Below are positions 784 to 21,498 of a DNA stretch of 32,000 bases, piece after piece. Position numbers and translations under genes: made by a program. The notes below the pieces were generated by a model, which was not told where the DNA came from, made no database searches, and saw only the letters and a program-made list of their open reading frames with translations. Positions within the stretch are counted from its first letter, which is position 1. Every line of letters starts with the position of its first letter. The DNA comes from Olavius sp. associated proteobacterium Delta 1 (GTDB lineage Bacteria; Desulfobacterota; Desulfobacteria; Desulfobacterales; JAFDCJ01): contig CACVKW010001110.1 in the NCBI GenBank assembly GCA_902749685.1, positions 1-32,000 of the forward strand, read 5' to 3'.

Positions 784-1848
784 TCACTCCGAGGTTTGAG
801 ATATAAAATGTTGAATAACCGGCAACAGGCCTACGACCCCTTCCTGGAGCGGTCGGATGACGGGCAGCCCGAGTCTTTGCGTAAGTTCGTCCCGGTAACG
901 GATTAAGTCCTCCCCGGTTCCTCCCTCTCCGTTCAGGCTAACGGCCAGGGTCTCAGCGCCGTACATTTTTATTAATTTGATCTCGTCTGCGACATCGGGT
1001 AATCGGCAGCCCAGGCGCTCCAACTCTTCATAATGTGTTCTGAAAGGCGCATGTTGCAGAATAACTCCCTTTGCATTGGCCGAGACAATAATTTCCGAAC
1101 CGCAGGGACCGGAGGGATTTCTGAGGCCGGATTGGCCTTCGATAAGAATCAAATCCGGAGAAGACTGACGGTTGCATTCCACGATAGCATGTTCAAGTTC
1201 CCCGCTGACAAAATCATTGAGCGTGGCGTCGAAAATAAATCCGTGCCTGTATCCCTGCAACCAACCGGTTTGCCCGGTGTAGATCATTTCAGCCTGAATT
1301 CCATTTTTGCGGCACGTTTCCTCTATAAAACGGCAGGTTGTTCTTTTGCCGATGGAGCAATCCATCCCGAGGACGGCTATTCGAGGTGTATGGACTTTAT
1401 AGATCTCACCGTTCCAAAAGTGAAGCTGGTCGATGGGTTTGGGCTTGCGAAGATCCATGATTTGAACACCATTTTTGCGGGCCGCCTCCCGCAGTACAAG
1501 GATTTCACTTAATGGGTAGTGCATGGTGCTGATGATGTTAATACAGCTTTGGATAGCTTCGAGCAGAATTTTATGCCAGTCCTCCGGCAGCTTCCCGCCG
1601 CTTAGCGCGACGCCGACGATGCCGAAATCCGGTTTTTGATGCTTCTGTTCCATAAATTCAGCGATCGATGCATACACGGGTATGTTTCTGCGCCGACCGT
1701 CCAGGACTTCGCCTGCATCTCTCCCGGCGCTTACCGGATCAATTACACCAACGATCTTAAAGCGGCTGGTTCCTCGAATAAGACCATGTGCAGTCTTCGC
1801 ATCGTCAGTCTCCAGCCGTCCGTTTGTTAGAATAAGTGCAGTATCCAT
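784..1848 (-). CDS. DUF1611-family protein (DgcN-like putative N-acetyltransferase)
   Basis: Motifs TAHGLIRG and GMDCSIGKRTT (P-loop-like) are typical of DUF1611. The ORF-track TTG start at 1881 lies inside a heptamer repeat, so the start was trimmed to ATG 1846-1848 (MDTALILTNG...). The gene is adjacent to an enolase-superfamily epimerase, as is common for this family. Confidence 0.75.
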   Translation of the reverse strand: MDTALILTNGRLETDDAKTAHGLIRGTSRFKIVGVIDPVSAGRDAGEVLDGRRRNIPVYASIAEFMEQKHQKPDFGIVGVALSGGKLPEDWHKILLEAIQSCINIISTMHYPLSEILVLREAARKNGVQIMDLRKPKPIDQLHFWNGEIYKVHTPRIAVLGMDCSIGKRTTCRFIEETCRKNGIQAEMIYTGQTGWLQGYRHGFIFDATLNDFVSGELEHAIVECNRQSSPDLILIEGQSGLRNPSGPCGSEIIVSANAKGVILQHAPFRTHYEELERLGCRLPDVADEIKLIKMYGAETLAVSLNGEGGTGEDLIRYRDELTQRLGLPVIRPLQEGVVGLLPVIQHFISQTSE

Positions 1849-1857
1849 AGGTAAGCA

Positions 1858-1897
1858 TAGGTTGAGCGGTTCAGGATTCAACGTTCAGGGTTGAAAA
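1858..1897. repeat. 7-nt periodic array (GGTTCAR-type) in the leader of the DUF1611 gene
   Basis: Reads CGGTTCA GGATTCA ACGTTCA GGGTTGA. Positions 1858-1889 are 29/32 identical to 24362-24393. Confidence 0.7.
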
Positions 1898-1978
1898 ACC
1901 CCAACAACAGCTCAAATCAAATAAATTTAAATAACCAAAATTCAAATGGCCGAAACGGGATATTGATTGGTAATCCTT

Positions 1979-3073
1979 TCAATCCGCAATCTGAAATCTG
2001 CAATCCGCAATCCACTTCACCCCGAGTCCCGGTTGGTCGGTTACAGATAACTCACCGTCTTTGAGAACGAAACCGCCTTCCACCAGATCCCTGGCCAGAT
2101 CCAGACTACCGTCCAGATCCAGGTAGCGGGTGGCCGGAGAAGCCAGGGCGGCGTGCAGGGCGGCGGCGATGCCGACCCTGCTCTCATCCATACATCCCCA
2201 CATCAAATCAATGCCGGCCAGATTGGCGAGTTCAGCGATCTGCAACCCCGCAGCAATGCCGCCGCACTTCATCAGCTTGATGTTGAAGATACCAAACGCA
2301 AACGGCGGCTGCAAGCATTCGAGGGCATCCCGGGCATCGAGCAGGCTCTCGTCGGCCACCGTCATTTTCCGCATCGATTCAGGCAGCCGGCGCATGCTGT
2401 CCAGATCACGGGCCGGTAATGGTTGTTCGATAAATTCCAGGTTTAGTGAATCGGTTTGATCAATGAAATATTTATATTCCTCCCGTGAGTACCCCTGGTT
2501 GGCATCCACCCGCAGGATCATGTCCCGGCCCGTGTGCTGGCGGATTTGACTCAGACATTCCACATCCTGCTCAACCGACTGCCCGATTTTGATTTTGAGA
2601 ATTTTAAAACCCCGTCCCTTATACTCGTCTGCTTCTTCGAGCGACTCGGCCACGGATTTTATCCCGATGGTAATAGACGTCGGCAACGACCGGTGGCACC
2701 GTCCCAGCAAATCAACCAGCGGCAAACCCAGATGCCTGGCCCATAGATCATGTAACGCAATATCGATTGCGGCCCGGGCCGCAGGCTGGGTGGGCATGCT
2801 GTTCTCCGCATTTCTCAGAATATTTCTTAAATGTCGGATATCCGCACCCATAACCAAGGACTCGAGACCGCTCTCCAGTGCCTGACGGCAATCCTGCACG
2901 CTTTCGCCGGTGACTTCTGCGTCCGGAGCGGCAACTCCCACACCAATCGAACCATCTTCTGTCTGCAGGCAAACAAAAATATTTTCAACTGAATCGATGC
3001 GCTCGTAGGCGATGGTGTACGGCCGTGTCAACTCGAACGGTTCGGTCCAGTATATTGCTTTGGTGATTTTCAT
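1979..3073 (-). CDS. enolase-superfamily (MR/MLE) dipeptide or N-acyl-amino-acid epimerase/racemase
   Basis: Carries KIKIG (KxK), VDANQGY, IEQPL, ADES and FNIKLMKCGGI catalytic and metal-ligand motifs. The start was trimmed from GTG 3109 to ATG 3071-3073 (MKITKAIYW...). The last 11 codons are encoded by the heptamer array at 1980-2014. Confidence 0.8.
   Translation of the reverse strand: MKITKAIYWTEPFELTRPYTIAYERIDSVENIFVCLQTEDGSIGVGVAAPDAEVTGESVQDCRQALESGLESLVMGADIRHLRNILRNAENSMPTQPAARAAIDIALHDLWARHLGLPLVDLLGRCHRSLPTSITIGIKSVAESLEEADEYKGRGFKILKIKIGQSVEQDVECLSQIRQHTGRDMILRVDANQGYSREEYKYFIDQTDSLNLEFIEQPLPARDLDSMRRLPESMRKMTVADESLLDARDALECLQPPFAFGIFNIKLMKCGGIAAGLQIAELANLAGIDLMWGCMDESRVGIAAALHAALASPATRYLDLDGSLDLARDLVEGGFVLKDGELSVTDQPGLGVKWIADCRFQIAD
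1980..2014. repeat. 7-nt periodic array CAATCCG CAATCTG AAATCTG CAATCCG CAATCCA
   Basis: Direct reading. It overlaps the last 11 codons of the epimerase ORF. Confidence 0.75.
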
Positions 3074-3405
3074 AATCTTTATCTTTTTTGCGATGACCGC
3101 CACCAACACTCAATTTAGGTTATCGTAATCCATATGGCAAAAATTAACTTTTAGTTGATTAATCAAAAAAGATGTAATTTACCTAAAATTTGATATAAAC
3201 GACAGCGAGGTGGATATTAGAAGTTTGTGAGACGGGATGCAAGAGGATTTTTAAATTTCAGGGACGGGTTCTTCTCCATAGGCGCTAAACTATTTATACC
3301 CGGGGGTGATTTTGGGCGGCTTAATGAAAATGTTGGACGTTCGATGCTTGCAGTCCGCCTCTGGAGGATTCGATGTTCAGCCAGTTTGTGTTTAAGGCTC
3401 AGCTT

Positions 3406-4011
3406 TTATAGGGCTTTTAGCGGGCTGTCCTGTTTTACGGCTTTTACCTGGTTTTCACCCCAGCGCTGAAATAGATCGTGTTTGATGCCCAGAAAATCGA
3501 ATACTTTTCCAATCGTTTGATCGATGATGTCATCGAGGGTTTTGGGCTTATGATAAAAGGAGGGTACCGGAGGCAGGATATGGGCGCCCATGTCAGCGGC
3601 CATGGTCATCAGCCGCAAATGTCCCTTGTGAAGCGGCGTTTCTCTAACAACGAGCACCAATTTGCGTCCTTCTTTCAGCGTTACATCCGCTGCTCTGACC
3701 AGTAGATTTTCGTTGTAGGAATTGGCAATACCGGATAGTGTTTTTATGGTACACGGTACCACCACCATGCCGTCAGTCAAAAAAGAACCACTGGCCAACG
3801 AGGCCGCTATATCCTTGTGTTCATAAACGTGGTCGGCCATCGCCTCAACTTCATCAGGCTTGTAATTGGTTTCGATCTTGATGTTTAACCTTCCTGAATC
3901 GGATATGATCAGATGGCTTTCATAATCGGTTTTTTCCAGTAAACTGAGTAGCCGGACGCCGTAAGTTACGCCACTGGCGCCTGAGATTCCTACTACTATT
4001 CGTTTTGGCAT
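3406..4011 (-). CDS. ubiX: flavin prenyltransferase UbiX (prenyl-FMN synthase)
   Basis: Carries GISGASG near the N-terminus and VVPCTIKTLSGIANSYNENLLVRAADVTLKEGRKLVLVVRETPL. Start is ATG 4009-4011 with GAGGA upstream. It lies 28 nt downstream of the UPF0261 stop. Confidence 0.9.
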   Translation of the reverse strand: MPKRIVVGISGASGVTYGVRLLSLLEKTDYESHLIISDSGRLNIKIETNYKPDEVEAMADHVYEHKDIAASLASGSFLTDGMVVVPCTIKTLSGIANSYNENLLVRAADVTLKEGRKLVLVVRETPLHKGHLRLMTMAADMGAHILPPVPSFYHKPKTLDDIIDQTIGKVFDFLGIKHDLFQRWGENQVKAVKQDSPLKAL

Positions 4012-4039
4012 GAATTTCCTCTTTCAAATTTTATTTTTA

Positions 4040-5251
4040 TTAAAATATTTTCAACGCATTTTCAACTACCGCCTGCGCGAATTCCGGATCTTCCATGTTG
4101 GCGTCGACTTCCACTATCTGAAGATCGGTCTTGAGTTTTTTCCGCAGAACTTCAGTAAACAATCGGTCTTCGGCCGGATCATAGGTTGGATTTCCGGGAA
4201 GATCTGCCGAGGACCATCCCTTAAGCGGTATCAAAATTCTTACCGGGCTCCGGGCTCGGTTCAGTTTTTCCGCGAAAGCATTGGCGACCTTATTTAATTC
4301 ATCCGGGGAAATACGCAGCCAGGTGCGAAGGTTATCCAGATCATATTTTCGTCGTTGCCTGTGCTCCGAAGTATATTTGGATTTTGAAGGTGTTATGTGG
4401 TTCACACTACAGGTGGATATGATTTGAGGTATTCCGACTTTCCCGGCAGATTCCAGGCGGTTTGGGCCTGAATCTCTCATAAAACCAAAAAGATGTTCTC
4501 CAACTCCACCAGGGGCTAAATCAATAATTCCCTGAAACATTTCAAGTGAGATCATTTCCTCCATGGCCCGGTCGCAGATTCCGGCTGCATGGAAACCAAT
4601 GACCTGGTATCCGGATTCTTGCAAGGCGTTCTGAACCCCATTTGCACATTTATCGCAGGGTCCAAGCATTGTCATGGCAATGGCCTTTCCTTTGCCCGTA
4701 TTCGGTGGAGTCATTTCCCCGAGAATCATACCGGCAATAGCATGGGCTGCCCTGTCAAAGACATTTTTAAGTAGATCTGAGAGCCCTGATAACTCAATAA
4801 CCGAATGAAAAAGGGTAATATCACCGGTTCCGATATACCGGGTTGAAAGCCCGGGCAGAGCAGCGGCAGAAGAAATCATCAATTTGGGAACACCGAAGGG
4901 GAGCGTCCGCATCACCTCAGTGATCATAAACGTTCCGGTTGCGCCTCCCATGCCGGTAACCCCGTGGATCTTACCCTCCGCCTGCAGCTGTTTGGCAATT
5001 TTCGATGCCCCCGCTATTGTAATATTGGTAATCTGCGTACGATCCTTAGAATTGCGGATTTCATCAAAATTACCACCACCGGCAGCGGCCACACGATCGG
5101 GGGTTATATCGGCAAGGGAAGCTATTGTTCCTCGCATGGAGATATCCATTAGCAGCGGTTGGAGACCACACGCTTTAATTTTATCTTTGAGATACAACGT
5201 CTCCGGTTGCTTGGTGTTCAAAGTGGAGATGACAAGAACGGTTTTTGGCAT
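4040..5251 (-). CDS. UPF0261 family protein (Tm-1-like ATP-binding domain), paralogue 1
   Basis: 403 aa. Carries family motifs STLNTKQPE, LPFGVPKLMISS, FHAAG....AMEEM and EDPEFA. Colinear with the ORFs at 15355-16584 and 19712-20929. Confidence 0.8.
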   Translation of the reverse strand: MPKTVLVISTLNTKQPETLYLKDKIKACGLQPLLMDISMRGTIASLADITPDRVAAAGGGNFDEIRNSKDRTQITNITIAGASKIAKQLQAEGKIHGVTGMGGATGTFMITEVMRTLPFGVPKLMISSAAALPGLSTRYIGTGDITLFHSVIELSGLSDLLKNVFDRAAHAIAGMILGEMTPPNTGKGKAIAMTMLGPCDKCANGVQNALQESGYQVIGFHAAGICDRAMEEMISLEMFQGIIDLAPGGVGEHLFGFMRDSGPNRLESAGKVGIPQIISTCSVNHITPSKSKYTSEHRQRRKYDLDNLRTWLRISPDELNKVANAFAEKLNRARSPVRILIPLKGWSSADLPGNPTYDPAEDRLFTEVLRKKLKTDLQIVEVDANMEDPEFAQAVVENALKIF

Positions 5252-5338
5252 AGATTAACCTGCTCTCTACGAATTAAACATTTATGTGCTACCACATAGA
5301 AATGATTTGAAGCCTTGTTTGTCTGTTAATGTAATAAT

Positions 5339-5385
5339 GAATGGATTATTTTTTAATTAAAAAACATTTAAAATAGAATCCATTC
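5339..5385. other. AT-rich stem-loop between the CoA-ligase stop and the UPF0261-1 start
   Basis: GAATGGATT (5339-5347) and AATCCATTC (5377-5385) are perfect 9-bp arms. The loop contains the 16-bp palindrome TTTTTTAATTAAAAAA. Confidence 0.45.
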
Positions 5386-5392
5386 CTTAATT

Positions 5393-7048
5393 TCAGGCTT
5401 CTTTTGCCACTTTCTCCGCGATCTCTTTTTTCAGAGTTTCCTTATTAACTTTCCCCGAATCGCCGACGGCGGGAAATTCATGTACTACTTCAAGACGTTC
5501 GGGGAGTTTATACATGGCCAGTTTTTTTCCTTTGAGGAACTCAACCATTTCTTCAAAGACGAATTCCTGGCCGGCTTTGGGGATGACATAGGCACATGTC
5601 CGCTCACCCATTTCCCGGTCCGGGTAACCCACCACGGCGACCGAGGCGACTTTCGAATGATCATTTAAAAGTCCTTCGATTTCCGCCGGATAAATATTTT
5701 GCCCGCCGCGGATGATCATGTCCTTGGCCCGCCCCAGGATCCATAGACATTCCTGATCGAATTTAACGATGTCCCCGGTTGTGGTCCATCCTTTTGGATC
5801 GAAGACGGTGGCGGTGAGTTCTTCATCCCGGTAGTAACCGGCCGGTGCGTGGGGTCCTCTGAAATACAGAACACCGGGTTCGCCATCAGCTACCGGTTCG
5901 TCGGTGTCTTTGTCCAGCAGGCGGACCTTGTTGCCCGGCAGCATGCGCCCGACGGTCCGGCGTCGAAGATCCTTGGAATCTTCTACCCGGCAGCCGGAAA
6001 CCGAGCCCATATCCTGGGTTCCCAGATCACTGGTGATATTGGCTCCGAAGGCGGTTTCGGCCTCTTCAGCTATCTGGGGAGAGAGATAGCCGCCGGCGGA
6101 GCGGATAAAACGCAGCGAACTCAAATCGTATTTGGAGGCATCGATTTCGAGCATTCTGACCAGGTGGGTCGGTACCACACCGATGGCGGTGGCCTTTTCC
6201 TTTTCAATCAGGGCCAAAGCGGCTTCCGGATCGAATTCTTCCAGCATAACTGTCTTGGCGCCGGCCAGCGGAGCGGCAAAATAGGTGAGGGTGCCGGCAG
6301 CCCCTCCGGCATGGGGTGCAATCGCCATGGTGGTGTCCTGGTTGGTAAGGCCCCATATGTCTACCCGGCCTTTGGAGGTGCATACGCGCGGGGCTGTGGG
6401 CCATTCCACCAGCTTGGGTATGCCGGTGGTTCCCGATGTCGTTGTCAGCAGGGCCACATCCCCGATCGGGTCTAAGCGTCGCGCTTTGAGGACATCTTCG
6501 TCAATGGGTTTTTGAGCTGCCGCTTGTGCTAATTGGGTTAGCGAATAGGTTCCTTCCGGTGCGCCTTGCGGTACTTCGTCGTCGAATAAAAAAATCTTTT
6601 CCAGATGCGGAAACTGCTTCTGAAGATCCTTGTACATTTCAAGATAATTGAAATTGCGGTATTCATTTAGAATGACAACGGCGGCGGCCTCAGTTCTCTC
6701 CACCATGTAAGTCAACTCTCTTTCCCGCAAATACGGATAAACGGTAAGAGAAATCAGGCCGGCTCTTTCAGCCGCAATTCGTGCCAGAAAGCCATACACA
6801 CTGTTCGGCGATTGAATAATGATTCTGGATGATCGAGGAATATCCATCTGTACCCAGGTGAAGGCAATGGCATCCACCAGATTTTTGGCTTCAGCCCAGG
6901 TAACGCGGTACTTGGAATCAACCAGGGCTTCCTGGTCCCCAAACTCGCGGGCGTTTCTTTGCCAGAAATCATAAAAAAGCTCATGCGTCCAATACCCGTC
7001 CGATAAAAATTCATCCACCATTTCCTGCTTATAGCGAATTGGTTTCAC
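5393..7048 (-). CDS. AMP-forming acyl/aryl-CoA ligase (adenylate-forming superfamily)
   Basis: Carries TSGTTGIPK (6413-6439), a GYW-containing N-terminus resembling aryl-acid-activating members, GDIVKFD and a C-terminal lysine region. Start is GTG 7046-7048, 6 nt downstream of GGGAGG. Confidence 0.85.
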   Translation of the reverse strand: MKPIRYKQEMVDEFLSDGYWTHELFYDFWQRNAREFGDQEALVDSKYRVTWAEAKNLVDAIAFTWVQMDIPRSSRIIIQSPNSVYGFLARIAAERAGLISLTVYPYLRERELTYMVERTEAAAVVILNEYRNFNYLEMYKDLQKQFPHLEKIFLFDDEVPQGAPEGTYSLTQLAQAAAQKPIDEDVLKARRLDPIGDVALLTTTSGTTGIPKLVEWPTAPRVCTSKGRVDIWGLTNQDTTMAIAPHAGGAAGTLTYFAAPLAGAKTVMLEEFDPEAALALIEKEKATAIGVVPTHLVRMLEIDASKYDLSSLRFIRSAGGYLSPQIAEEAETAFGANITSDLGTQDMGSVSGCRVEDSKDLRRRTVGRMLPGNKVRLLDKDTDEPVADGEPGVLYFRGPHAPAGYYRDEELTATVFDPKGWTTTGDIVKFDQECLWILGRAKDMIIRGGQNIYPAEIEGLLNDHSKVASVAVVGYPDREMGERTCAYVIPKAGQEFVFEEMVEFLKGKKLAMYKLPERLEVVHEFPAVGDSGKVNKETLKKEIAEKVAKEA

Positions 7049-7220: not shown

Positions 7221-8627
7221 CTATAGCCCCAGTTCCGACCAGCGCCCCTTGACTCTTTCAACCATCTCCGGATCCAGTTCAATTGGAATCGGCTTATCTT
7301 TCCAATCGTATGGAATCGTGGCGTCCAGCAGCAGTCGGCCTGTGATTTCTCGGGCATTTATCGGCAAGGAGGGATCCAGCGGTGTGGACCGACCGCGTTT
7401 AATGACCTGGGATCGATTGGGCTGGAAGCGGAAGCTTAAGGCATACATGACGCGGGGAATATCCCAGGGATCAATATCTTCGTCGACGACGATCACAGTT
7501 TTCAGCCCGTAAGCGCCCATTTCTGTTGAAATCGCGGCTGTCAATACCTGGTCGGCGTGGCCCGGATACATCTGCTTCATTGAGATAATGGCCAGAAAGC
7601 GGCCGGAGCCTTCCGGCGGACAGTAGACGGCCTTTAAACCGGGTATCTTCATGGCCAAAAGTTGCTGCCAAAGAGTGGCGCCGTATGAAAGTGCCATGGT
7701 CATGTGGGTATCGGTGACGGCCCGGCCGACGGTGGTTCCCCACAAAATCGGGTTGTTTCTGTGGGTGACGCATTTAACATCGATAAAATTTCGCGGATCT
7801 GTGCCGACGCCGGAATAGTAGCCGGTGTATTCGCCGAAAGGTCCTTCTTCCATAAATTTATCGGCATCCACCTCACCTTCTATGACGATTTCGGCTGTGG
7901 CCGGAATGGGAAGATCCACTGTTTCGCCTTTGACAACTTCCACGGCTTCACCCCGCAACGCGCCGGCGACATCGTATTCGGAGGTAAAGGCTGAGATGCG
8001 GGCCGCTCCAAGGATGAACAACAGGGGATCGCATCCGATGACCGAGGCCACCGGCATGGGTTTGCCCATGGCCTGGTATTTTTTCAGCATGATGTCGGCG
8101 TGTTTGCCCTTGATGAACTGGGTCCCCATCTTATCTTTGCCGAGAAGCTGGCTGCGGTATGTGCCCAGGTTAACCCAGCCGGTTTCAGGATCTTTGGAAA
8201 TGATGAAATGCGCGGTGCCGATAAACCGGCCACCGTCCAGGGGATACCACTGGGGAACGGGAAATTTGAAAAGATCGATGTCGTCGCCTGTCAGGATATT
8301 CTCTTTACAGGGTGCGGCTGAGGATTCCACCGTCTTGGGCGGTATCAGGTTATCACCCAGTTTGGCCCATTCATTGTAAAGGTCTACCAGGGTGGATTCG
8401 AGGGGCAATCCCATGATTAAAGCAAGCCGCTGGGTCGTGGTGCAGACACTGGTGATGACCGGCGTGTCATAATCTTTTACATTTTCAAAAAGCAGCGCCG
8501 GACCGCTGGCCTCTTCATTTAGTTTGGCGATATGTGACAGCTCTAAATTCCAGTCGACTTCGGCGGTGATCCGTTTACACAGTCCGATTTCTTCACCTTG
8601 GGCTACAAAATCTCTCATGTCTTTCAT
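7221..8627 (-). CDS. UbiD-family prenyl-FMN-dependent (de)carboxylase
   Basis: 468 aa. Carries LGTYRSQ and EGPFGEYTGYY (7815-7847), which are UbiD signatures. Start is ATG 8625-8627 with GGAGA upstream. Confidence 0.9.
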   Translation of the reverse strand: MKDMRDFVAQGEEIGLCKRITAEVDWNLELSHIAKLNEEASGPALLFENVKDYDTPVITSVCTTTQRLALIMGLPLESTLVDLYNEWAKLGDNLIPPKTVESSAAPCKENILTGDDIDLFKFPVPQWYPLDGGRFIGTAHFIISKDPETGWVNLGTYRSQLLGKDKMGTQFIKGKHADIMLKKYQAMGKPMPVASVIGCDPLLFILGAARISAFTSEYDVAGALRGEAVEVVKGETVDLPIPATAEIVIEGEVDADKFMEEGPFGEYTGYYSGVGTDPRNFIDVKCVTHRNNPILWGTTVGRAVTDTHMTMALSYGATLWQQLLAMKIPGLKAVYCPPEGSGRFLAIISMKQMYPGHADQVLTAAISTEMGAYGLKTVIVVDEDIDPWDIPRVMYALSFRFQPNRSQVIKRGRSTPLDPSLPINAREITGRLLLDATIPYDWKDKPIPIELDPEMVERVKGRWSELGL

Positions 8628-8899: not shown

Positions 8900-9970
8900 T
8901 TATTCCGGAAGCTTGATCCGTTTCATCGCCTGATCCATCAACAACTGGTAACCGGTCTTTTTGCCGAGCACCGATTCCTTCTTGCGCTGGCTCCAGACGG
9001 TTTCCGGGCGTGCCTGAACAATGAAAATATTTTCCGGGAATAGAAAATCCTTATCGATGGCCCACTCGATATCCATGGCGCGTCCGTAGTGCGCTTCTAT
9101 GGTTTTGGCTGTTTTGACCAGTTCTCTTATTTCCCGGTCCTCGAGACAGCAGGTGCACTGCAGGTCTTCGGCGACCTCGGCGTCGACGGTTTCTCCTTTT
9201 TCTACGTCGAAGACACACTCAATGTGCTTGGTGGAGATGGTCCGCTCATTGATCTCCCCCATGACCTTGTCGACGACGAACTTGTCCGGGTTGACGGAAC
9301 CGGATACAACCGTTTCTCCCAAACCCCAGCTTCCTTCAAGCACGACTTTGGAAATATCACCGTCGGTGGGATTCAGGGTGAACATCACCCCCGCTGCCCT
9401 TGAATTCACCATATTCTGGACACCGACACTGATCAGTACCTTTTCGTGGGGGAAGTCGTTTTTGACCCGGTAGCTGATGGCCCGCGGCGTATACAGGCTG
9501 GCCCAGCACTTTCGGACACTTTCAATGACCCGCTCAGCGCTCATTATCCAAAGGTAAGTGTCCTGTTGCCCGGCAAAACTGGCCGTGGGCAGATCTTCGG
9601 CGGTCGCACTGGATCTGACTGCCACCGGAAGGGCGTCAATCCCGCATTTTTCGCAAAGCAGGGCATAACCCTCGCCGATCGCCTTTTGGACATCACCGGG
9701 GATAACGGCAGTCTTGATCATTTCCTGGACTTTTTCGGCGGTTTGGTTGAGCGCATTGATATTTTCGGGATCCAGATCCGCCAAAAGGCTGAAAATCGTA
9801 TCATTTATCCCGGCTTTTTCCATAAATACCGAATAGCTGTTGGTGGTGACGGCAAATCCTGGCGGAACCCGGATGCCGGCATTGATCAATTCGCCCAGGC
9901 TGGAATTTTTACCACCAACCAATGGCAGCGAACCTTTATTTAGTTTGCGAAAATCCAGGATTAAATCCAT
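8900..9970 (-). CDS. PEP-synthase N-terminal-type ATP-binding subunit (phenylphosphate synthase beta-like)
   Basis: 356 aa (~39 kDa). Carries VGGKNSSLGEL and RSSATAEDLPTASFAGQQDTY, signatures of the PPDK/PEP-synthase nucleotide-binding domain. It has no His or PEP domains. Start is ATG 9968-9970 with GGGAGG upstream. Confidence 0.8.
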   Translation of the reverse strand: MDLILDFRKLNKGSLPLVGGKNSSLGELINAGIRVPPGFAVTTNSYSVFMEKAGINDTIFSLLADLDPENINALNQTAEKVQEMIKTAVIPGDVQKAIGEGYALLCEKCGIDALPVAVRSSATAEDLPTASFAGQQDTYLWIMSAERVIESVRKCWASLYTPRAISYRVKNDFPHEKVLISVGVQNMVNSRAAGVMFTLNPTDGDISKVVLEGSWGLGETVVSGSVNPDKFVVDKVMGEINERTISTKHIECVFDVEKGETVDAEVAEDLQCTCCLEDREIRELVKTAKTIEAHYGRAMDIEWAIDKDFLFPENIFIVQARPETVWSQRKKESVLGKKTGYQLLMDQAMKRIKLPE

Positions 9971-10086: not shown

Positions 10087-11949
10087 TTAACTTGCTCTTT
10101 CGACAATCGTGACAGTACCGGTATCCCCATCGACTTTGACAATATCCCCGGTTTGGATCGCGGCTGTGGCGATACCGCAGCCGGTTACCGAAGGCACGCC
10201 ATATTCCCGGCAGACAATCGCCGCATGGCTGGTCAGCCCGCCGATGTCAGTAACCGCAGCCTTGATATTGGTGAACACCGGGGCCCAGGATGGATTGGTC
10301 GACGGGCAAACCAGAACCTCACCCGGTTGCAGGTCGACAATGTCCTTGAGCCGCTTGAGGACCCGCGCCGGACCTTCAGCCATGCCGGCCGAAGAGGCAA
10401 AACCCTTGATTTCAGAGAGGTCCGCACCTGCCGTTGTATCAGCGCCTTTGAGCCATTCTTTAACCTTGTCGGTGGTAATACCCCACAGCATGATGGTGAA
10501 CGGCTCGGCCACTTCTTCGGGCGGTACGCCCAGCGCCGGTGTCGGATTCCATTCGACGGCAGCCTCGAGGATCTTTTTGCGTTTTGCGGCCTTGGATTTA
10601 TAGTAACCACCCCTGACCGGTATATCCACGCCCAGAGCCCAGGCAGTTGCAACTTCAGTCAGAAGCTGCGGAATCTCGTAGCGGTTGAACATAAATATGT
10701 CGTCCACCTCATTAATCATTCCGTTGGCAACCAGAACGGATCCAATTTGTCTGATTTTTTTATACCAGATGGTGTGAAACCAGTGTTCCACCCAGAAGAG
10801 ATGGTCCTCGGCATAGCGGTAGATGGTTCTGATGGTGTTATAGGCATCCTCAAAAGCTTTACGGTCGTCGTCGGTTTGGATCATCTTGCGGTACTCGGCG
10901 ACAATTTCATCGCGTTCCTTCTCGATCTTTTCCAGGGAGCGCTCGATGGTTTCGCCCCTGTCCAGCCTTTCCACATAACCTTTGATATAGCTGTAGGGAA
11001 TGTCCAAATCAGTGAGCCAGCTGCCCTCGTGGTTATACCAGCCGCTGCCGCAGGATACGTAAAACCAGGGATCACTTGACTTTTCATATTCGGCCAGCCA
11101 GTTTTTGCCGGCTTCTGATTGTTGAAGCTCGGCAACCTTGTCGGCGGCGGATTTGGTGCTCTTGAGAATGTTGCCTACGCCATCCGCAGAAACCGCCAGG
11201 CGGGCGAGCCGACAAAGCTCTTCTTCGGGGCGGAACATGGAAACATAAGCGCCGGCGACCATCTTGCCGATGGCGCTTTCACTGATCCCCGGAAAAAGTT
11301 TACGCGAAACATCCGCGAACATGAGATAGGCCAGATAGGTCAGGTTGAGCATTTCAAAATGATATTGCCAGCCCTTAAACATCTGGTTGACCAGCTTGTC
11401 GAAAGACTCGATCAGGTTATAGCTGTCATAGAAACCAGTGGGTGCCGGCAGGACCTGATCGTCGGGAACATACTTAGGCAGCTCTTGCGGGATCTGAACT
11501 GCGCTCATTTCTTCACCCAGGGCTTTAAATTTGGTTAACCACTTGTCCCACAATTCATCGTAGTGTTCAAAGACATAAAATACCCGTTTTTCGAAATGCC
11601 CGGCTTTTTCAGCGATAATTTCATCCGGCGGTGGGGCAATCGCGCAAATATACAAATAGCCGCCCACTATTCGCTGGGCGATGCCCTGGGCGGGAGGGAT
11701 GCAAAATACCCTTGTTGTATATTGTGATAGCGAAATCTGCCATGCTTCCTGGAAGATTAAATCCAGCGGTGGTAATGGTTCCGGGGCATGGATTTTGTCT
11801 TGATACCAGAACTGAGCTTTTTCCCATTCTTCTCTGTCCTTGGAAAACAGGTGGTGAGTCGGGTACATCTCTTCCCAGCCTTCAAGCTCGGGAGGGACTT
11901 GGAATTCGTGAGGATCCGGAAATCTTCCTTCATTATCGGCCATTTTCAT
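10087..11949 (-). CDS. PEP-utilising enzyme, mobile-His-domain subunit (phenylphosphate synthase alpha-like)
   Basis: 620 aa (~68 kDa). The C-terminal GGLTSHAAIVCREYGVP has its His codon at 10225-10227. The N-terminus reads FPDPHEFQVPPELEGWEEMYP. Start is ATG 11947-11949 with AGGAGG upstream. Confidence 0.8.
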   Translation of the reverse strand: MKMADNEGRFPDPHEFQVPPELEGWEEMYPTHHLFSKDREEWEKAQFWYQDKIHAPEPLPPLDLIFQEAWQISLSQYTTRVFCIPPAQGIAQRIVGGYLYICAIAPPPDEIIAEKAGHFEKRVFYVFEHYDELWDKWLTKFKALGEEMSAVQIPQELPKYVPDDQVLPAPTGFYDSYNLIESFDKLVNQMFKGWQYHFEMLNLTYLAYLMFADVSRKLFPGISESAIGKMVAGAYVSMFRPEEELCRLARLAVSADGVGNILKSTKSAADKVAELQQSEAGKNWLAEYEKSSDPWFYVSCGSGWYNHEGSWLTDLDIPYSYIKGYVERLDRGETIERSLEKIEKERDEIVAEYRKMIQTDDDRKAFEDAYNTIRTIYRYAEDHLFWVEHWFHTIWYKKIRQIGSVLVANGMINEVDDIFMFNRYEIPQLLTEVATAWALGVDIPVRGGYYKSKAAKRKKILEAAVEWNPTPALGVPPEEVAEPFTIMLWGITTDKVKEWLKGADTTAGADLSEIKGFASSAGMAEGPARVLKRLKDIVDLQPGEVLVCPSTNPSWAPVFTNIKAAVTDIGGLTSHAAIVCREYGVPSVTGCGIATAAIQTGDIVKVDGDTGTVTIVERAS

Positions 11950-12565: not shown

Positions 12566-12576
12566 AATTGCATCTC

Positions 12577-13536
12577 ATGCTCAACTTCAACCAACTTCGT
12601 GTTTTTTATAAGGCTGCAAAGAATTTAAATTTTACCGCCGCCGCCAACGAGCTTTTTATTACGCAACCCGCTGTTACGTTTCAGGTGAAGTCTTTCGAAG
12701 AATATTGCGAATTAAAACTGTTTAAAAAAAAAGGGCGCCGAGTATATCTGACGGACGAAGGTAAAGCGCTACTTGAATACGCGGAAAAAGTTTTTCAATA
12801 TGAAAAAGAAATCGAAAACGCCATCGATGAAATGCGGGAATTAAAACGCGGCGTGCTTCGCCTCGGAACCACCAAAGCGTATGCTCGTTATTTTATGCCT
12901 CTGATGATCACCTCCTTTCACAATAAATTCCCGAATATAAAAATCCAGCTGAATGAGGGCAGCTCGGCAGACATGATTTACAGTTTAGTCGATTTTAAAA
13001 TTGATGTGGCGGTTATTGCCAAAGCGGTTGAGCACCCCGAGGTAAATTTTTATCCCTTCAGCAGGGAAGAGATGGCCTTAATTGTCGCTCCTGATCACCA
13101 TCTTGCCGAAATAAAGGAGATTTCGTTTAAAGAATTATCAAAAGAGCTATTTATCATGAAAGAGAATGGTTCGGGAACCAGAAAGCTTGTCGAAGAATTA
13201 TTCACGAAGGCAAAATGTACACCCAATATATTAATGGAGACGAGCAATACCGAGTTCATTAAACAGCTAGTTAACCGCGGAGAGGGCGTATCTTTTCTGG
13301 TGCGAGAGGCGGTGGCAGCTGAGCTCAACAATAATTATCTGGCTGAGGTGCCTATAAAGGGGCACAAAATTCTCTTAGATGTCAGCATCGCCTATTTAAA
13401 GGCACAGGTGCTTTCGCCACCGGCCCGGGCATTTGTGGATACCCTAACCAAGCTGCGATCGGAAGTTATTGATCCCATGGGTATCGGCGCCCTTATGACA
13501 AGGATTCTTGCGCAGCGCAGAAAAGACAAAAAATGA
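12577..13536 (+). CDS. LysR-family transcriptional regulator
   Basis: N-terminal HTH reads FTAAANELFITQPAVTFQVKSFEE, followed by a C-terminal substrate-binding fold. The ORF track starts at TTG 12568. The first ATG is at 12577, so the start is ambiguous by 3 codons. It is divergent from the pps-like operon. Confidence 0.9.
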   Translation: MLNFNQLRVFYKAAKNLNFTAAANELFITQPAVTFQVKSFEEYCELKLFKKKGRRVYLTDEGKALLEYAEKVFQYEKEIENAIDEMRELKRGVLRLGTTKAYARYFMPLMITSFHNKFPNIKIQLNEGSSADMIYSLVDFKIDVAVIAKAVEHPEVNFYPFSREEMALIVAPDHHLAEIKEISFKELSKELFIMKENGSGTRKLVEELFTKAKCTPNILMETSNTEFIKQLVNRGEGVSFLVREAVAAELNNNYLAEVPIKGHKILLDVSIAYLKAQVLSPPARAFVDTLTKLRSEVIDPMGIGALMTRILAQRRKDKK

Positions 13537-13715
13537 AAACTAAATTCGAGACCATCTGGCAATTGGCCAAACCATATCTTGATACCCGGCACAATGAAGT
13601 TCACAGCGAAATTTCCACCCAACTGGCTTTCGAGCTTTTAAATGGGGAAGGTGGTGATGAAGCTAGTTGTCCCACAAATACATTAAAAAAGTCGATCAGG
13701 ATACCTATAGTATAA
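13533..13715 (+). pseudogene. N-terminal remnant of an HD-domain phosphohydrolase gene
   Basis: The first ~43 codons (MKTKFETIWQLAKPYLDTRHNEVHSEISTQLAFELLNGEGGDE) look like the start of small HD-domain proteins. The expected ...IPA..LHD.G continuation is replaced by unrelated sequence and a stop. The start makes an ATGA overlap with the lysR stop. Repeat DNA follows. Confidence 0.4.
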
Positions 13716-13747
13716 AGGGTTCCCGGAATATAGAAAATTTCAAGCGT

Positions 13748-13797
13748 CAAATTACAAATACCAAACAATATCCAAATTCCAAGCTCCAATGATCCAA
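13748..13797. repeat. 7-nt periodic A/C-rich array (CAAATTA CAAATAC CAAACAA TATCCAA ATTCCAA GCTCCAA TGATCCA)
   Basis: Direct reading. Confidence 0.6.
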
Positions 13798-13977
13798 ACA
13801 AGTTTTGACTTGCCGCAAGATGCGGTATCAAAAAAAACACCTGACGAATTGAACTTATTAACCGCTGAATAAGTCAAGCCGTCAGGTGGGTATGACCTGG
13901 AGACAATTATTTGATCGATTTCAGGTTTTGACAATACCTGTTAGGGGCTGTTAACCTGAACCGAATAACCTAACCTC

Positions 13978-15054
13978 TTATAATCCGCCAACTGCTATTT
14001 CGACCCGGCGGTTCATTGCGCGTCCTTTAGATGTGGCGTTGCTGGCAGCCGGATTGGCTGGTCCGTAATAGTTAACCACGATGCGGTCGCCGGCAATCAT
14101 GTAATTGTCCATTAAATAATTCGATACACTTTCAGCCCTTCTGAGGGACAGTCCCAGGTTATATTCCTCAGGCCCGGTGCTATCGGTATAGCCTTCGAGC
14201 AGCACATAGGCGGCAGGGTTCTTTTGAAGAAACGATCCCAGAGCATCGACTTCATCGACATAGCTGGTTCGGACACTTGCCTTATCGAAATCAAACCGTA
14301 TGCTGTCAATCTGGAGGCCGACGATTCTTGTTTCGGCAGTCGTTTCGATGCGCTCGGTTGCCTTTACGGTATACAGCGCGCCGGTCGTATATTCCGGATT
14401 CTCGATAAATTTACTAAACGGAATCACCCGCGAGCAGGCGTTGGCCTTGGCCATATCCCCCAGTCGTTTCTGGGCTAAATTGTCCTGGGGAGCGCCAATT
14501 ATATAGAAGCAGACATTATATTTGTCGGCAAATTCCTGGGTATAGTCTTCCGGCTCTCTGATGCCCTCAATCTGGCTGTAAGTACCGTCGCTGAATATGA
14601 AAACGACGGTTTTGCCCGACGATCCCTGCAAAACCGGTTCAATTTTGCGAAGTGACTGGGCTAAAAAGGTCCGTCCTTTGGGATCCGCCGGCATGCTGTC
14701 CACCGCTTCGGCCCACCCCATTTTGTCAAGGCGCGCCATCGGTTCGAGTTCCGTGTAGGGCGTATACAGGTACAGACCGGCGTTGTACCCCAAATCCGGC
14801 AACTGTGCTACCTTCTCTTTCAGAATAGCTCTGGCTATTTCATATCTCGATTCCGGCGATCCTTTCTTGTACTGTCTTTTCATGGAATTGGATGCATCAA
14901 ACAAGACGATAAAATTATCTGCCAACTTAATAAAATTTTCTTCCACAACCACCCTTTTAATAATATCCTCTTCGGTGACAATCTCGGCGGCTGGAAGCAG
15001 TCCCGGCAAGATCATTCCTAGTACCATTAAAAGTACTGTTAATTTAAGTTTCAT
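13978..15054 (-). CDS. secreted vWA-domain / OmpA-C-like peptidoglycan-binding protein
   Basis: The start was trimmed to ATG 15052-15054 (MKLKLTVLLMVLGMILPGLLPAAE signal peptide, GGGAGGA SD). A MIDAS-like VLFDASNSM is present. The C-terminal OmpA motif reads LEGYTDSTGPEEYNLGLSLRRAESV...NRRVEI. Confidence 0.8.
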   Translation of the reverse strand: MKLKLTVLLMVLGMILPGLLPAAEIVTEEDIIKRVVVEENFIKLADNFIVLFDASNSMKRQYKKGSPESRYEIARAILKEKVAQLPDLGYNAGLYLYTPYTELEPMARLDKMGWAEAVDSMPADPKGRTFLAQSLRKIEPVLQGSSGKTVVFIFSDGTYSQIEGIREPEDYTQEFADKYNVCFYIIGAPQDNLAQKRLGDMAKANACSRVIPFSKFIENPEYTTGALYTVKATERIETTAETRIVGLQIDSIRFDFDKASVRTSYVDEVDALGSFLQKNPAAYVLLEGYTDSTGPEEYNLGLSLRRAESVSNYLMDNYMIAGDRIVVNYYGPANPAASNATSKGRAMNRRVEIAVGGL

Positions 15055-15354
15055 TGTCTTTCCTCCCGTCTTAAAATTGTTATTGCTGTCAGTTAACCGA
15101 AACACTTTCCATTTCCCACTTGTTCTGGTTCGTTGGGCATGATCTCTTACCCGCCGCCCGAACACGAAGGTTGATATTTGCCTTCAAAGTGAGGTCATAA
15201 TTTCAATTGCAATCAAATTAAACATCACTTATTTTGCTGTCAACTCTGATATTACGTTTAAGCCCCTAATTTTATGTTTTTTTTCAACTGTTATAGCTCA
15301 AGATTGTTTAGAAATCCCTATCGGAAGGTTTTGTGTTGAATATTCAAGCCACCC

Positions 15355-16584
15355 TCATTGCGCGGACTGTAATTGATCAAAAGCCTTCAAAATAGCCAGG
15401 GCAAACTCCGGATCGTTGATATGGCAGGGGAGTAGACTCACCATCATCTGATCATTTAGATGCGCCTGTAATGTTTTGGCGAACAGTTGCGGTGCGTCAG
15501 GGTCGTATAACGGTCCTTCTTTGCTGTCAAAAGCGGAAAATCCGTCCATCGGTATCAGCATCTTTACCGGGCCGACGGCCTCATTGCACCTATTGGCAAT
15601 AGTTCGGGAAAGAATTTCAATTTCTGCACGGGTTGAACGAACCACCGTTATGGCCGCATTGTGCACGTGATAAGGCCGGTCGGGAAACAGGCGCCGGGCG
15701 TTTTCCAGGGGGCCGCTAACCAGAAAATCGATATTACCCGGGATAAGAATGGTCGGCAGGCCCAGTTGCAAAGCAGTGTTGCCCCTGTCCGGACCGGCGT
15801 CATAATCACCGCCGAAAAGATGATCTCCTAATTCGTGCAGTGAAAGGTCCACCAGGATTGATACCCCCTCCGGCTCGATCATCTCTTCCATGGCCTCGCC
15901 GCCGGAGCCCACTGTGTGAAATATGACAACTTCGTTGCCCTTTTCTTCCAGAGTCCGGCGCACCTGCTGGGCGCAGGCTTCAGTCGTGCCCAGGGTGGAA
16001 AGAAAAACCAGTGGTTTTGATATGTGATCTTCAGTGACCGGCGCCGGTTGCAGCATGCCCGCTAATGCCATGGCGCCATTGCGAAGTATTTTTCTGGTGA
16101 GGCGATTCAGACCGGCCAGATCACATACTGCATGCAGCATCAAAATATCCTTGGTTCCCACGAATGCCCTGGTGTCGCGTGAAGCCATGGTGGAAATCAT
16201 GACCTTGGGCACCCCGACGGGGAGAGATCGCATTACTCCGCTGGCCAGAGTCGTACCCATAGAACCGCCTAGGCCGATGACTCCCTGAATTCGGTTTTGG
16301 AGATATAACTTCTGAGCGCAGGCAATTGCTCCATTGGTCATTACTTCGAGGGCTTGACCTTCATGACCGATATTTTGAACTTCTTCCAGCGATATTCCGC
16401 CGGCTTTAGCAACTTCTGTTCGACTGATATTTACCGGGACGGGGCTGTGTCCTTTAATGCCCGCATCCATGGTCTGAACGGATATGCCGGCTTGTTGAAG
16501 GCAGGTTGAAATAAAAAGAGCTTCCTGACCTTTGGTATCCATGGTGGCAATCAGAAGTGCTTCAGCGGACTGGGTCAAAATCAC
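15355..16584 (-). CDS. UPF0261 family protein (Tm-1-like ATP-binding domain), paralogue 2
   Basis: 409 aa. Carries ATMDTKGQE, LPVGVPKVMISTMAS, FHTVGSGGEAMEEM, LHELGDHLFGG, GPLYDP and HINDPEFA. Start is GTG 16582-16584. Confidence 0.8.
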   Translation of the reverse strand: MILTQSAEALLIATMDTKGQEALFISTCLQQAGISVQTMDAGIKGHSPVPVNISRTEVAKAGGISLEEVQNIGHEGQALEVMTNGAIACAQKLYLQNRIQGVIGLGGSMGTTLASGVMRSLPVGVPKVMISTMASRDTRAFVGTKDILMLHAVCDLAGLNRLTRKILRNGAMALAGMLQPAPVTEDHISKPLVFLSTLGTTEACAQQVRRTLEEKGNEVVIFHTVGSGGEAMEEMIEPEGVSILVDLSLHELGDHLFGGDYDAGPDRGNTALQLGLPTILIPGNIDFLVSGPLENARRLFPDRPYHVHNAAITVVRSTRAEIEILSRTIANRCNEAVGPVKMLIPMDGFSAFDSKEGPLYDPDAPQLFAKTLQAHLNDQMMVSLLPCHINDPEFALAILKAFDQLQSAQ

Positions 16585-16949
16585 CTCTTTGAACGATGCG
16601 CCATATTTATGTTTGTTCGAATACTTTGGATTCTATCAGACCTTGCAGATATGGCTATGCGCCTGATCAACTGAGCCCCGGTTTAATTGCGATAACAATT
16701 AATTGTAACGGATTAGATAGGCAGTTGCGCCTGATAAATCACAGAATACTCCGGGTAGTCAATAATAAAATTGCAGTGCAATAATATTATTTGAATTATT
16801 GCAATGTGAATACATGCGCGAACATTGAGAAGGTCGCTGAACCCTAAAGGATGTTCGTACAAACGAATCTTATTATTGTAATGGTAGAAAATAATATGAT
16901 ATCAACAAACGCAGGCCATATTTCTTACTATAGTGAAAGGTAGATCAAG

Positions 16950-20929: not shown

Positions 20930-21018
20930 TGGTGCCTCGAAATTCCGACTTTCGACTTCATAAATCTGACCTCTAAATTTTGGCATCCGTCGTCCGTCTA
21001 CGCTTTGCGTATTTCCCT

Positions 21019-21498
21019 TTACACCTCATGCAAACTGAAAAATCCATCCTTGTGCCAGATCAGCGGCGGTTTTCCCGTATCCTGCTGAGAAACGACTCGT
21101 CCAATAAATATTCGGTACCCCTGAATCTCATGGCTGCTTTCAACATTGCAAATCATCCAGGCCGCAGCTCCTTCAGGTATTAACGCCTGGCTCCATGTTT
21201 CGGAGATGGATTTAATGGAAAATTTTTCAAATTTATCCACATTATCCCCCTTGACACTGCCAACCTGCTTGGCCAGCTGCTTGTGGCTTGCGCCGGCGAT
21301 AACCAGGGTAAACTTAGCTGATTCCAGTATCAGTTTCTCCGTGAGATGGCCCTGGGCAACACTGATCGCCAGCAGGGGCTCTTTTTCAGACACAAACATG
21401 GCCGTGGCCGTCATGATGTCACGTGCCGCACCATGCGCTGTACTCACAAAAACCACCGAACACGGCAGCCAGTAAAAGACATTGTTTTCTCTATCCAT
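21019..21498 (-). CDS. flavin reductase-like (FMN-binding split-barrel) protein
   Basis: 159 aa with the pattern VVFVSTAHGAARDIMTATAMFVS..PLLAISV....T..LI.ES..F.L.I, then GSVKGDNVDKF and GYRIFIGRVV. Start is ATG 21496-21498 with GGAGGA upstream. Confidence 0.72.
   Translation of the reverse strand: MDRENNVFYWLPCSVVFVSTAHGAARDIMTATAMFVSEKEPLLAISVAQGHLTEKLILESAKFTLVIAGASHKQLAKQVGSVKGDNVDKFEKFSIKSISETWSQALIPEGAAAWMICNVESSHEIQGYRIFIGRVVSQQDTGKPPLIWHKDGFFSLHEV

Follow-up and report, generated by a model that had tools for sequence, protein, structure and literature searches.

A conserved UPF0261-family protein of Desulfobacterota phenol operons, coupled to an aryl-acid ligase and possibly acting in phosphoryl transfer

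A 32,000-nucleotide stretch of DNA from Olavius sp. associated proteobacterium Delta 1 (contig CACVKW010001110.1, positions 1 to 32,000; hereafter the window) carries a phenol-type operon in which a gene of the UPF0261 family, here called UPF_A (4040-5251, minus strand), lies between an AMP-forming ligase gene and the flavin prenyltransferase gene ubiX. Its place in anaerobic phenol/aniline catabolism is real and conserved, and had not been discussed before. With close to even expectation, we tentatively read it as a conserved and distinct subfamily of the MarK/Tm-1 two-domain ATP-binding kinases that forms a fixed, substrate-induced part of the Desulfobacterota module leading from phenol to 4-hydroxybenzoyl-CoA. 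By analogy with MarK, it would move a phosphoryl group to or from a phenolic intermediate of the pathway in an ATP/ADP-linked reaction, with phenol/phenylphosphate and 4-hydroxybenzoate/4-hydroxybenzoyl-CoA as candidate substrates. The module would consist of a Pps-type dikinase, a single-subunit PpcB carboxylase dependent on prenylated flavin mononucleotide (prFMN), an aryl-acid ligase, and UbiX; UPF_A would complement the dikinase and also the carboxylase, which lacks the gamma and delta subunits of the Thauera enzyme. Because the UPF0261 gene stays by the ligase and not by ubiX, UPF_A is more likely to act on a phosphorylated aromatic intermediate than to produce the flavin cofactor.

The window operon runs PpsA-PpsB-UbiD(PpcB)-ligase-UPF0261-UbiX, with a divergent LysR-type regulator gene that is syntenic with the operon, holding the same position in most related loci. 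Its features, in window coordinates, are listed here.

12568-13536, plus strand: LysR-type regulator, divergent (Pfam HTH_1 and LysR_substrate)
10087-11949, minus strand: PpsA-like phospho-histidine subunit of a phenylphosphate-synthase-type dikinase, 620 aa (Pfam PEP-utilizers; NCBIfam PRK08296.1-5, 849 bits)
8900-9970, minus strand: PpsB-like ATP-binding subunit of the same dikinase type, 356 aa (Pfam PPDK_N, E 8e-119)
7221-8627, minus strand: UbiD-family carboxylase, phenylphosphate carboxylase beta-type (PpcB), 468 aa (Pfam UbiD_N/UbiD/UbiD_C)
5393-7048, minus strand: AMP-forming aryl-acid/acyl-CoA ligase (DHB-AMP-ligase-like), 551 aa (Pfam AMP-binding and AMP-binding_C)
5252-5392, minus strand: AT-rich spacer between ligase and UPF_A, 141 nt (composition, fold, identity break)
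4040-5251, minus strand: UPF_A, MarK/Tm-1 (UPF0261) family, 403 aa (Pfam PF06792 and PF23189)
4012-4039, minus strand: spacer between UPF_A and ubiX, 28 nt (direct sequence reading)
3406-4011, minus strand: ubiX, flavin prenyltransferase, 201 aa (Pfam Flavoprotein, E 7e-43; NCBIfam)

An earlier sequence-only reading of the window had placed UPF0261 and ubiX inside a UbiD operon, and Pfam and NCBIfam assignments of PpsA, PpsB, UbiD, and the ligase bear this out. The PpcB-type UbiD passes the equivalog model TIGR02724 (512 bits against a cut-off of 469), and ubiX scores 264 bits with NF004685 (cut-off 188) and 246 bits with TIGR00421. The tight junction reported in that reading is exact to the nucleotide: the UPF_A stop codon TAA (4040-4042), directly followed by a second in-frame TAA (TAATAA), lies 28 nt from the ubiX ATG (4009-4011), and a Shine-Dalgarno motif, GAGGA (4017-4021), sits in the gap 5 nt before the ATG. 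Pfam and NCBIfam scans found no homologue of the gamma or delta carboxylase subunits in the window cluster, where the beta-type UbiD stands alone, and a Pfam scan found no CBS-domain PpsC gene in the window operon. The pathway logic is that of Thauera aromatica PpsABC/PpcABCD, for which the window holds PpsA, PpsB, and PpcB homologues together with ubiX, but in Thauera the carboxylase also comprises subunits alpha, gamma, and delta, and there is a CBS-type PpsC. The Thauera cluster is not known to include a UPF0261 gene.

Family membership of UPF_A is clear. Both UPF0261 domains were detected with full-length coverage (PF06792 at the N-terminus, E 9e-51; PF23189 at the C-terminus, E 2e-65), and the protein passes NCBIfam NF002674 with 368 bits against a cut-off of 335. 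Searched against the PDB with phmmer, it matched MarK (9MPY, E 5e-53) and Tm-1 (3WRW/X/Y, E 2e-48). An AlphaFold2 model (predicted local distance difference test score 77) returned 9MPY as its top Foldseek match at E 8e-32, and matches 1-12, all to 9MPY and Tm-1 (E 8e-32 to 1e-25), were the sole full-length structural matches. An exhaustive search of 1.84 billion cluster representatives recovered 3,280 UPF0261 family members, among which the nearest outgroups to the UPF_A clade are 53%, 47%, 44%, and 42% identical. UPF0261 domains alone were detected by Pfam and NCBIfam, with no sign of the HAD/KDO-8-P-phosphatase-like fold of PpcD, and Pfam found neither the CBS (AcuB-like) domain of PpsC nor the PF21758 or PF01613 domain of LpdD and PhdC.

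The statement that UPF0261 proteins have no assigned reaction, on which the sequence-only reading had built, is outdated. MarK (multiple aromatic kinase, Saro_1862 of Novosphingobium aromaticivorans), a UPF0261 protein described by Hall et al. in 2025, is a homodimeric ATP-to-ADP aromatic kinase whose phosphoryl acceptors are the phenolic hydroxyls of acetovanillone, 4-hydroxyacetophenone, and similar molecules; its structure (9MPY) has D14-T15-K16 at the nucleotide site and G195, H219, H304, and H348 around a bound phenol (PMC12624787). It acts as a non-homologous analogue that replaces the two-component kinases AcvAB/HpeHI (PMC12624787), dikinases that are themselves homologues of phenylphosphate synthase (PMC9618137). 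At ~29-32% identity, UPF_A and MarK share the two-domain UPF0261 fold, length, the N-terminal D/N-T-K motif, and the G195 equivalent. They also share an aromatic catabolic operon in which phosphorylation is followed by carboxylation and Pps-type dikinase homologues co-exist; the PpsAB-PpcB-ligase operon gives UPF_A the kind of cluster location that marks the MarK subgroup. The settings differ in that the MarK pathway employs a biotin carboxylase on an acetyl side chain, whereas the UPF_A pathway uses prFMN/UbiD on the ring in strict anaerobes, with the UPF_A gene coupled to an AMP-forming ligase. Tm-1, the tomato resistance protein against ToMV (tomato mosaic virus; PDB 3WRW/3WRX), likewise shares the fold, an ATP-binding N-domain, and a lysine equivalent to K20. 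Unlike UPF_A, whose operon is catabolic and encodes no TIM-barrel partner, Tm-1 is fused to a TIM-barrel and binds viral replicase.

Conservation of the arrangement was examined in one genome per GTDB species, which yielded 267 relatives. The best 80, 63-79% identical to UPF_A, were analysed as loci labelled L001 and onward, and come from Desulfobacterales, Desulfatiglandales, Syntrophobacteraceae, Desulfobacula, and similar metagenome-assembled genomes. Neighbours were called by tblastn with the window proteins, and counts take only loci with enough flanking DNA. The ligase gene lies directly upstream of the UPF0261 gene in 67 of 68 loci, UbiD upstream in 58 of 60, and PpsA together with PpsB in 40 of 49, while ubiX follows within 2 kb downstream in 52 of 55. 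These neighbour counts make the UPF0261 gene a core member of the phenol-type operon, with its co-occurrence with ubiD and ubiX conserved over 80 species; a lack of such co-occurrence, which the sequence-only reading had said would undo its proposal, was not seen. The close spacing seen in the window does not extend to the relatives: ubiX lies within 100 nt of the UPF0261 gene in only 18 of 74 loci, so the tight junction is a minority state. Nor does a specific partnership with ubiX hold up. The invariant and often translationally coupled partner is the ligase, whose stop codon lies no more than 25 nt from the UPF0261 start in 29 of 70 loci, sometimes with a negative gap. Other genes are inserted between the UPF0261 gene and ubiX in 40 of 69 loci, and ubiX is absent within 9-10 kb in L063, L066, L075, and L110. 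Linkage as first described stands, and the mechanism proposed from it probably does not.

Three kinds of insert separate the UPF0261 gene from ubiX. In 29 loci (e.g., L001 11373-11768) the insert encodes a ~130-aa PF21758 protein, not found in the window, whose sole PDB relative is LpdD, a chaperone of the reduced cofactor prFMNH2; this suggests, from sequence, that a dedicated prFMN chaperone is common among anaerobic phenol clusters. A ~218-aa double-CBS protein resembling PpsC is found in 10 loci, and a ~200-aa HD-domain protein in seven (L029 11212-11838 and six others). Nudix (L105 11244-11801) or HD phosphohydrolase genes (the same seven loci and L106 12844-13434) stand beside ubiX in some clusters, and they are plausible candidates for enzymes converting dimethylallyl diphosphate (DMAPP) to dimethylallyl monophosphate (DMAP), a conversion for which E. 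coli Nudix hydrolases are known (PMC12359138). In the Desulfatiglandales-type locus L015, the order UbiD-ligase-UPF0261-UbiX continues into HcrBCA (4-hydroxybenzoyl-CoA reductase-like) and IclR genes (12994-16811); loci of this type have no Pps genes within 10 kb, leaving a module without a visible dikinase.

More distant relatives extend this pattern. In a sister clade (Desulfarculaceae, Desulfoferula mesophila, Desulfomonile), the members with operon context are 50-53% identical to UPF_A and the operon is rearranged. The order in D. mesophila is PpsA-PpsB-ligase-UPF0261-Nudix-CBS-UbiX-HcrBCA, and UbiD sits with a UPF0261 paralogue beyond the divergent LysR gene. In L105-L107 the UPF0261 start overlaps the ligase stop and a CBS-domain PpsC-like gene is present alongside; in L106 and L107 ubiX opens the operon, 8 kb from the UPF0261 gene. 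There ubiX overlaps at its end with a further gene (L106 2431-2943; L107 2539-3051), whose 170-aa product, PNPOx-like and FMN-binding, is a candidate for maturing prFMN without O2 in strict anaerobes. L110 combines UbiD-ligase-UPF0261 with two extra paralogues and has neither ubiX nor pps within 9 kb, and no related gene context was found at L109. The most divergent setting is L111 (4582-11687), where a 39-41%-identical homologue lies among genes for a Pps/HpeHI-like dikinase, biotin carboxyl carrier protein, biotin carboxylase, and carboxyltransferase. Both kinase types share this one Hpe/Acv-like operon of a biotin-dependent aryl-ketone-type pathway, in which no UbiD or UbiX was found. Since this context lacks UbiD and UbiX, the family tracks pathways of aryl phosphorylation and carboxylation across clades; within the phenol module, it follows the ligase.

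Evidence for induction by substrate comes from published proteomics of Desulfatiglans anilini. The 403-aa protein H567DRAFT_02057, annotated "Uncharacterized protein, UPF0261 family", is encoded between a ubiX-like gene (02056) and the gene for a 552-aa ligase (02058), which is followed by a 468-aa PpcB (02059), an order that matches the window (PMC7500099 Table S1). From its length and gene order it is the presumed orthologue of UPF_A, although the D. anilini cluster differs in carrying hcr genes between ubiX and pps. Mass spectrometry (MS) area values (replicate 1, Table S1) for 02057 were 0 on 4-aminobenzoate, 5.0e7 on aniline, 5.3e7 on benzoate, and 2.5e9 on phenol (91 peptide-spectrum matches), or ~50-fold up on phenol (PMC7500099). 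On the same substrate the ligase reached 1.3e10, PpcB 1.8e10, and UbiX 3.9e7 (PMC7500099), and UbiX was detected on phenol only. A second UPF0261 protein, the 411-aa 03869, adjoins ligase 03870 in the aniline (ani) cluster, which has no ubiX, and gave 5.4e9 on 4-aminobenzoate, 6.5e8 on aniline, and 0 on both benzoate and phenol; each D. anilini PpcB paralogue has its own UPF0261 protein (PMC7500099). Neither of the two D. anilini papers discusses these proteins (PMC7500099, PMC6114531), and literature searches combining "Tm-1-like" with UbiD, or for "Tm-1-like ATP-binding", found no papers; benzene-degradation papers from 2026 had no relevance to the UPF_A cluster. As a separate observation, ligase 02058, which holds the position of the window ligase and is DHB-AMP-ligase-like, is among the most abundant phenol-induced proteins, yet 4-hydroxybenzoate-CoA ligase was assigned to 02049 (PMC7500099); the role of 02058-type ligases may need revisiting.

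Two gaps in phenol and aniline degradation by sulfate reducers give these observations their interest: the carboxylase lacks gamma and delta subunits, and an ATP bill of up to four equivalents looks unaffordable (PMC6114531). The UPF0261 gene is present in the clusters of 80 of 80 sampled species and is duplicated for the aniline route, and the 43-kDa UPF_A belongs to a family whose first biochemical function was assigned only in 2025. Phosphoryl transfer is favoured by the MarK precedent and by the L111 context, and we infer the chemistry from these. Acting on phenol, UPF_A would be a cheaper kinase; acting on phenylphosphate, it would be a phosphate acceptor or relay for a carboxylase without delta and gamma; acting on 4-hydroxybenzoate or 4-hydroxybenzoyl-CoA, it would fit both the coupling to the ligase and the preference of MarK for para-carbonyl phenols. 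Possible outcomes include a second reaction type for a family represented by over 3,000 clusters, a full gene set for reconstituting UbiD-type phenol carboxylation in biocatalytic CO2 fixation, or an ATP-dependent helper to join the prFMN accessory proteins.

Two further UPF0261 paralogues, UPF_B and UPF_C, overlooked in the sequence-only reading, are encoded in the window beyond the LysR gene.

15355-16584, minus strand: UPF_B, 409 aa, 32% identical to UPF_A (Pfam, pairwise identity)
19712-20986, minus strand: UPF_C, 424 aa, 34% identical to UPF_A (Pfam, pocket residues)
21019-21498, minus strand: flavin-reductase-like (PF01613) gene adjoining UPF_C (Pfam Flavin_Reduct, E 5e-21)

The three window paralogues are mutually 32-35% identical. 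Orthologues of UPF_B lie upstream of LysR in L013, L037, and L041; those of UPF_C lie directly after ubiX in L029, L038, and L091, beside UbiD in L105, and upstream of the cluster LysR gene in several loci. The paralogue that accompanies UbiD in D. mesophila is also of the UPF_C type. A general linkage of UPF_C to ubiX was rejected, as a 60%-identical homologue in L101 stands beside metX/metW without ubiX, and L094 has none either. Adjacency of UPF_C to the flavin-reductase-like gene is kept in L029, L038, and L085-L090. That gene was considered as a PhdC-type prFMN maturase; it belongs to the same Pfam superfamily, but a sequence search of the PDB with the window protein did not find PhdC at E <= 0.01, and the assignment is kept only as a lead.

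Several observations weigh against a straightforward kinase role, and the most direct come from the active-site pocket, which was compared across 78 UPF_A orthologues and 126 UPF0261 family representatives. The nucleotide motif is kept: it reads N12-T13-K14 in the window, D is found in 74 of the 78 orthologues and T and K in all 78, and DTK occurs in ~93% of the 126 representatives. The change from D to N12 in the window is a conservative variant. The equivalent of G195 is also kept (G197 in UPF_A). The canonical pocket is otherwise common in the family at large (H219 of MarK is His in 88% of the 126 representatives, D282 Asp in 78%, H304 His in 70%), and UPF_C keeps the family-canonical H, G, and D residues. 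In the phenol-operon clade, by contrast, the H219 position is Ser in 73 of 78 orthologues and His (H221) in the window and five loci, D282 is replaced by N284, H304 by L305, and H348 by V or A, so the phenol pocket of MarK (G195, H219, H304, H348) is present in the UPF_A clade only in part. In MarK, H219 bonds the phenolic oxygen and H304 pi-stacks (PMC12624787), and canonical catalysis or phenol binding may not apply to the UPF_A clade. The clade has gained invariant P198, C199, C281, and H285 among 49 clade-specific invariant positions. P198, S221, N284, and L305 recur in the sister clade, whereas the Cys/His trio does not. A Cys3-His metal or redox site (C199, C202, C281, H285) was considered and rejected: it is invariant in the UPF_A clade, yet the corresponding residues are T/C, C, S/G, and L in the ligase-linked sister clade, and C202 is common across the whole family, so the site is not needed for the conserved role. 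UPF_A is thus a member of the family but no straightforward MarK, and its ligand, and perhaps its chemistry, would differ. Moreover, PpsAB already provides a phenol kinase in most clusters. The altered pocket and the presence of PpsAB widen the range of candidate substrates and directions. In gene context, three different UPF0261 paralogue clades directly adjoin ubiX somewhere, which also fits a cofactor-related role. A direct link between UPF0261 and UbiX finds its best single datum at L108 (9001-12634), where two UPF0261 paralogues followed by ubiX lie beside IS21 transposase genes and UbiD, ligase, and Pps are all missing from the vicinity.

An alternative close to the sequence-only proposal is that UPF_A uses ATP for the prFMN system, by supplying DMAP or reduced FMN to UbiX, inserting prFMN into PpcB, or supporting an O2-independent oxidative maturation. 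We consider this unlikely but allow it some weight, given the three paralogue clades found next to ubiX and an anaerobic prFMN maturation whose oxidant, in strict anaerobes, has yet to be established in the literature (PMC13040415). Consistent with a cofactor role are the usual presence of ubiX within 2 kb downstream, the L108 locus, the separate UPF0261 protein of each D. anilini PpcB paralogue, and the UPF_C-type paralogues that abut ubiX and pair with a flavin-reductase-fold gene, a fold shared by the prFMN maturase PhdC (PMC13040415); a kinase, ThiM, can also make DMAP from prenol (PMC12359138). Set against this, direct adjacency to ubiX holds in only 18 of 74 loci, ubiX is remote or absent in the loci named above and in the aniline cluster, L111 has neither UbiD nor UbiX, and the window flavin-reductase-like gene gave no match to PhdC in the PDB sequence search. 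UbiX/UbiD systems also work in hosts without UPF0261. The clusters already encode LpdD-like, Nudix, HD, and PNPOx-like candidates, and for DMAP supply in particular the Nudix and HD hydrolases and the LpdD-like chaperone near ubiX are better candidates than UPF_A (PMC12359138). LpdD and PhdC, which aid the cofactor, resemble the UPF0261 genes in being encoded beside ubiX/ubiD, but have no homology to UPF0261; the presence of an LpdD-like gene between UPF0261 and ubiX in 29 loci argues that genes of the LpdD/PhdC type are not redundant with UPF0261. The further suggestion that UPF_A substitutes for the missing accessory (gamma, PpsC) subunit of the dikinase is hardly to be expected. The window operon does lack a CBS-domain PpsC gene, and what the gamma subunit does has itself not been defined (PMC6114531). 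However, a CBS PpsC-like gene directly follows the UPF0261 gene in 10 of 80 loci and co-occurs in L105-L107, which largely contradicts the suggestion; there is no sequence relationship, and the UPF0261 gene persists in clusters without Pps within 10 kb.

Phosphoryl transfer on a phenolic intermediate, the reading we prefer, has a directional variant in which UPF_A handles phosphate on behalf of the carboxylase. By accepting the phosphoryl group of phenylphosphate and releasing phenolate to PpcB, it would replace the missing PpcD (an HAD phosphatase) and PpcC, with the phosphate possibly passed to ADP/AMP and energy saved. We regard this as unlikely, though it would suit a cluster whose beta-type UbiD stands without homologues of gamma or delta. 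In D. anilini ppc-gamma is missing, and how sulfate reducers meet the energy cost of activating phenol has been called unexplained (PMC6114531). Pps and the ligase both release AMP, MarK chemistry is ATP/ADP-linked (PMC12624787), and UPF_A co-occurs with PpsAB instead of replacing it. Its weaknesses are that UPF_A shows its conserved coupling with the ligase and not with UbiD, and that a PpcD-like gene elsewhere in the D. anilini genome is transcribed (PMC6114531). In its boldest form we think it rather improbable: UPF_A would take the phosphoryl group of an aryl phosphate (phenylphosphate, phenylphosphoamidate), pass it to ADP or AMP, and deliver phenolate to the single-subunit PpcB of strict anaerobes. 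Were it true, part of the invested ATP would be recovered, which would explain how energy-limited sulfate reducers afford phenol activation, and UPF0261 would gain a new reaction and UbiD-type carboxylases a new architecture. By analogy with Tm-1, which works through ATP-bridged binding (PMC12624787), UPF_A might instead be a diverged and largely non-catalytic ATP-binding subunit or regulator, modulating the ligase or dikinase or forming heterodimers with a canonical paralogue such as UPF_C. The loss of pocket residues typical of the whole family (S in place of H219, N of D282, L of H304), the homodimeric state of MarK with several paralogues per locus, and translational coupling to the ligase in L105-L107 would agree with this; but the 49 clade-specific invariant residues, many near the pocket, argue for a specific ligand site over decay, and D. 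anilini makes the protein in abundance (area 2.5e9, where the ligase has 1.3e10 and UbiX 3.9e7). Such a role seems to us improbable.

On the same strand after ubiX (784-3109, minus strand), the window carries MR_MLE (dipeptide-epimerase-like) and DUF1611 genes and a 176-aa open reading frame. These were rejected as parts of the phenol module, since they were seen in the window's own lineage only and not in the 80 related loci.

The AT-rich spacer upstream of UPF_A (5252-5392) had been described as a stem-loop region that might set UPF_A and ubiX apart as a sub-unit. Its composition is as described, with 26.7% GC against 43-63% in the flanking genes, and it contains a 9-bp inverted repeat, GAATGGATT (5377-5385) and AATCCATTC (5339-5347). 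The fold, however, is weak and not significantly stable (z -1.65; 12 of 200 shuffles fold equally well). No terminator-like site was found in the spacer, promoter-like matches were at chance level (13 found against 11.9 expected), and the spacer's two weak promoter-like matches are what shuffled sequence gives. A transcription-unit boundary was rejected on these grounds.

A boundary of evolutionary origin is, in contrast, apparent at the same place. For PpsA, PpsB, UbiD, and the ligase, the window shares 89-97% protein identity and 83-88% DNA identity with L006, L013, L017, L020, and L037, and UPF_A is only 67-69% identical to the UPF0261 proteins of these loci, which are 79-88% identical among themselves. 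UPF_A is nearer to its counterparts in L001, L002, and L028 (76-79%), whose remaining operon genes are more distant. It is precisely at the AT-rich spacer that DNA identity to the five closest genomes falls to 68-69%; in ubiX it climbs part of the way back, to ~78%. Judged by these identities, UPF_A is phylogenetically discordant with the upstream operon genes, and ubiX partly so; the spacer is a real boundary, one of recombination in the window's lineage, where the UPF0261 gene, perhaps with ubiX, was apparently swapped as a cassette. The sub-unit suggested in the sequence-only reading thereby gains an evolutionary sense in place of a transcriptional one. The pattern suggests that an H221-type allele took the place of an S221-type one in the manner of a cassette.

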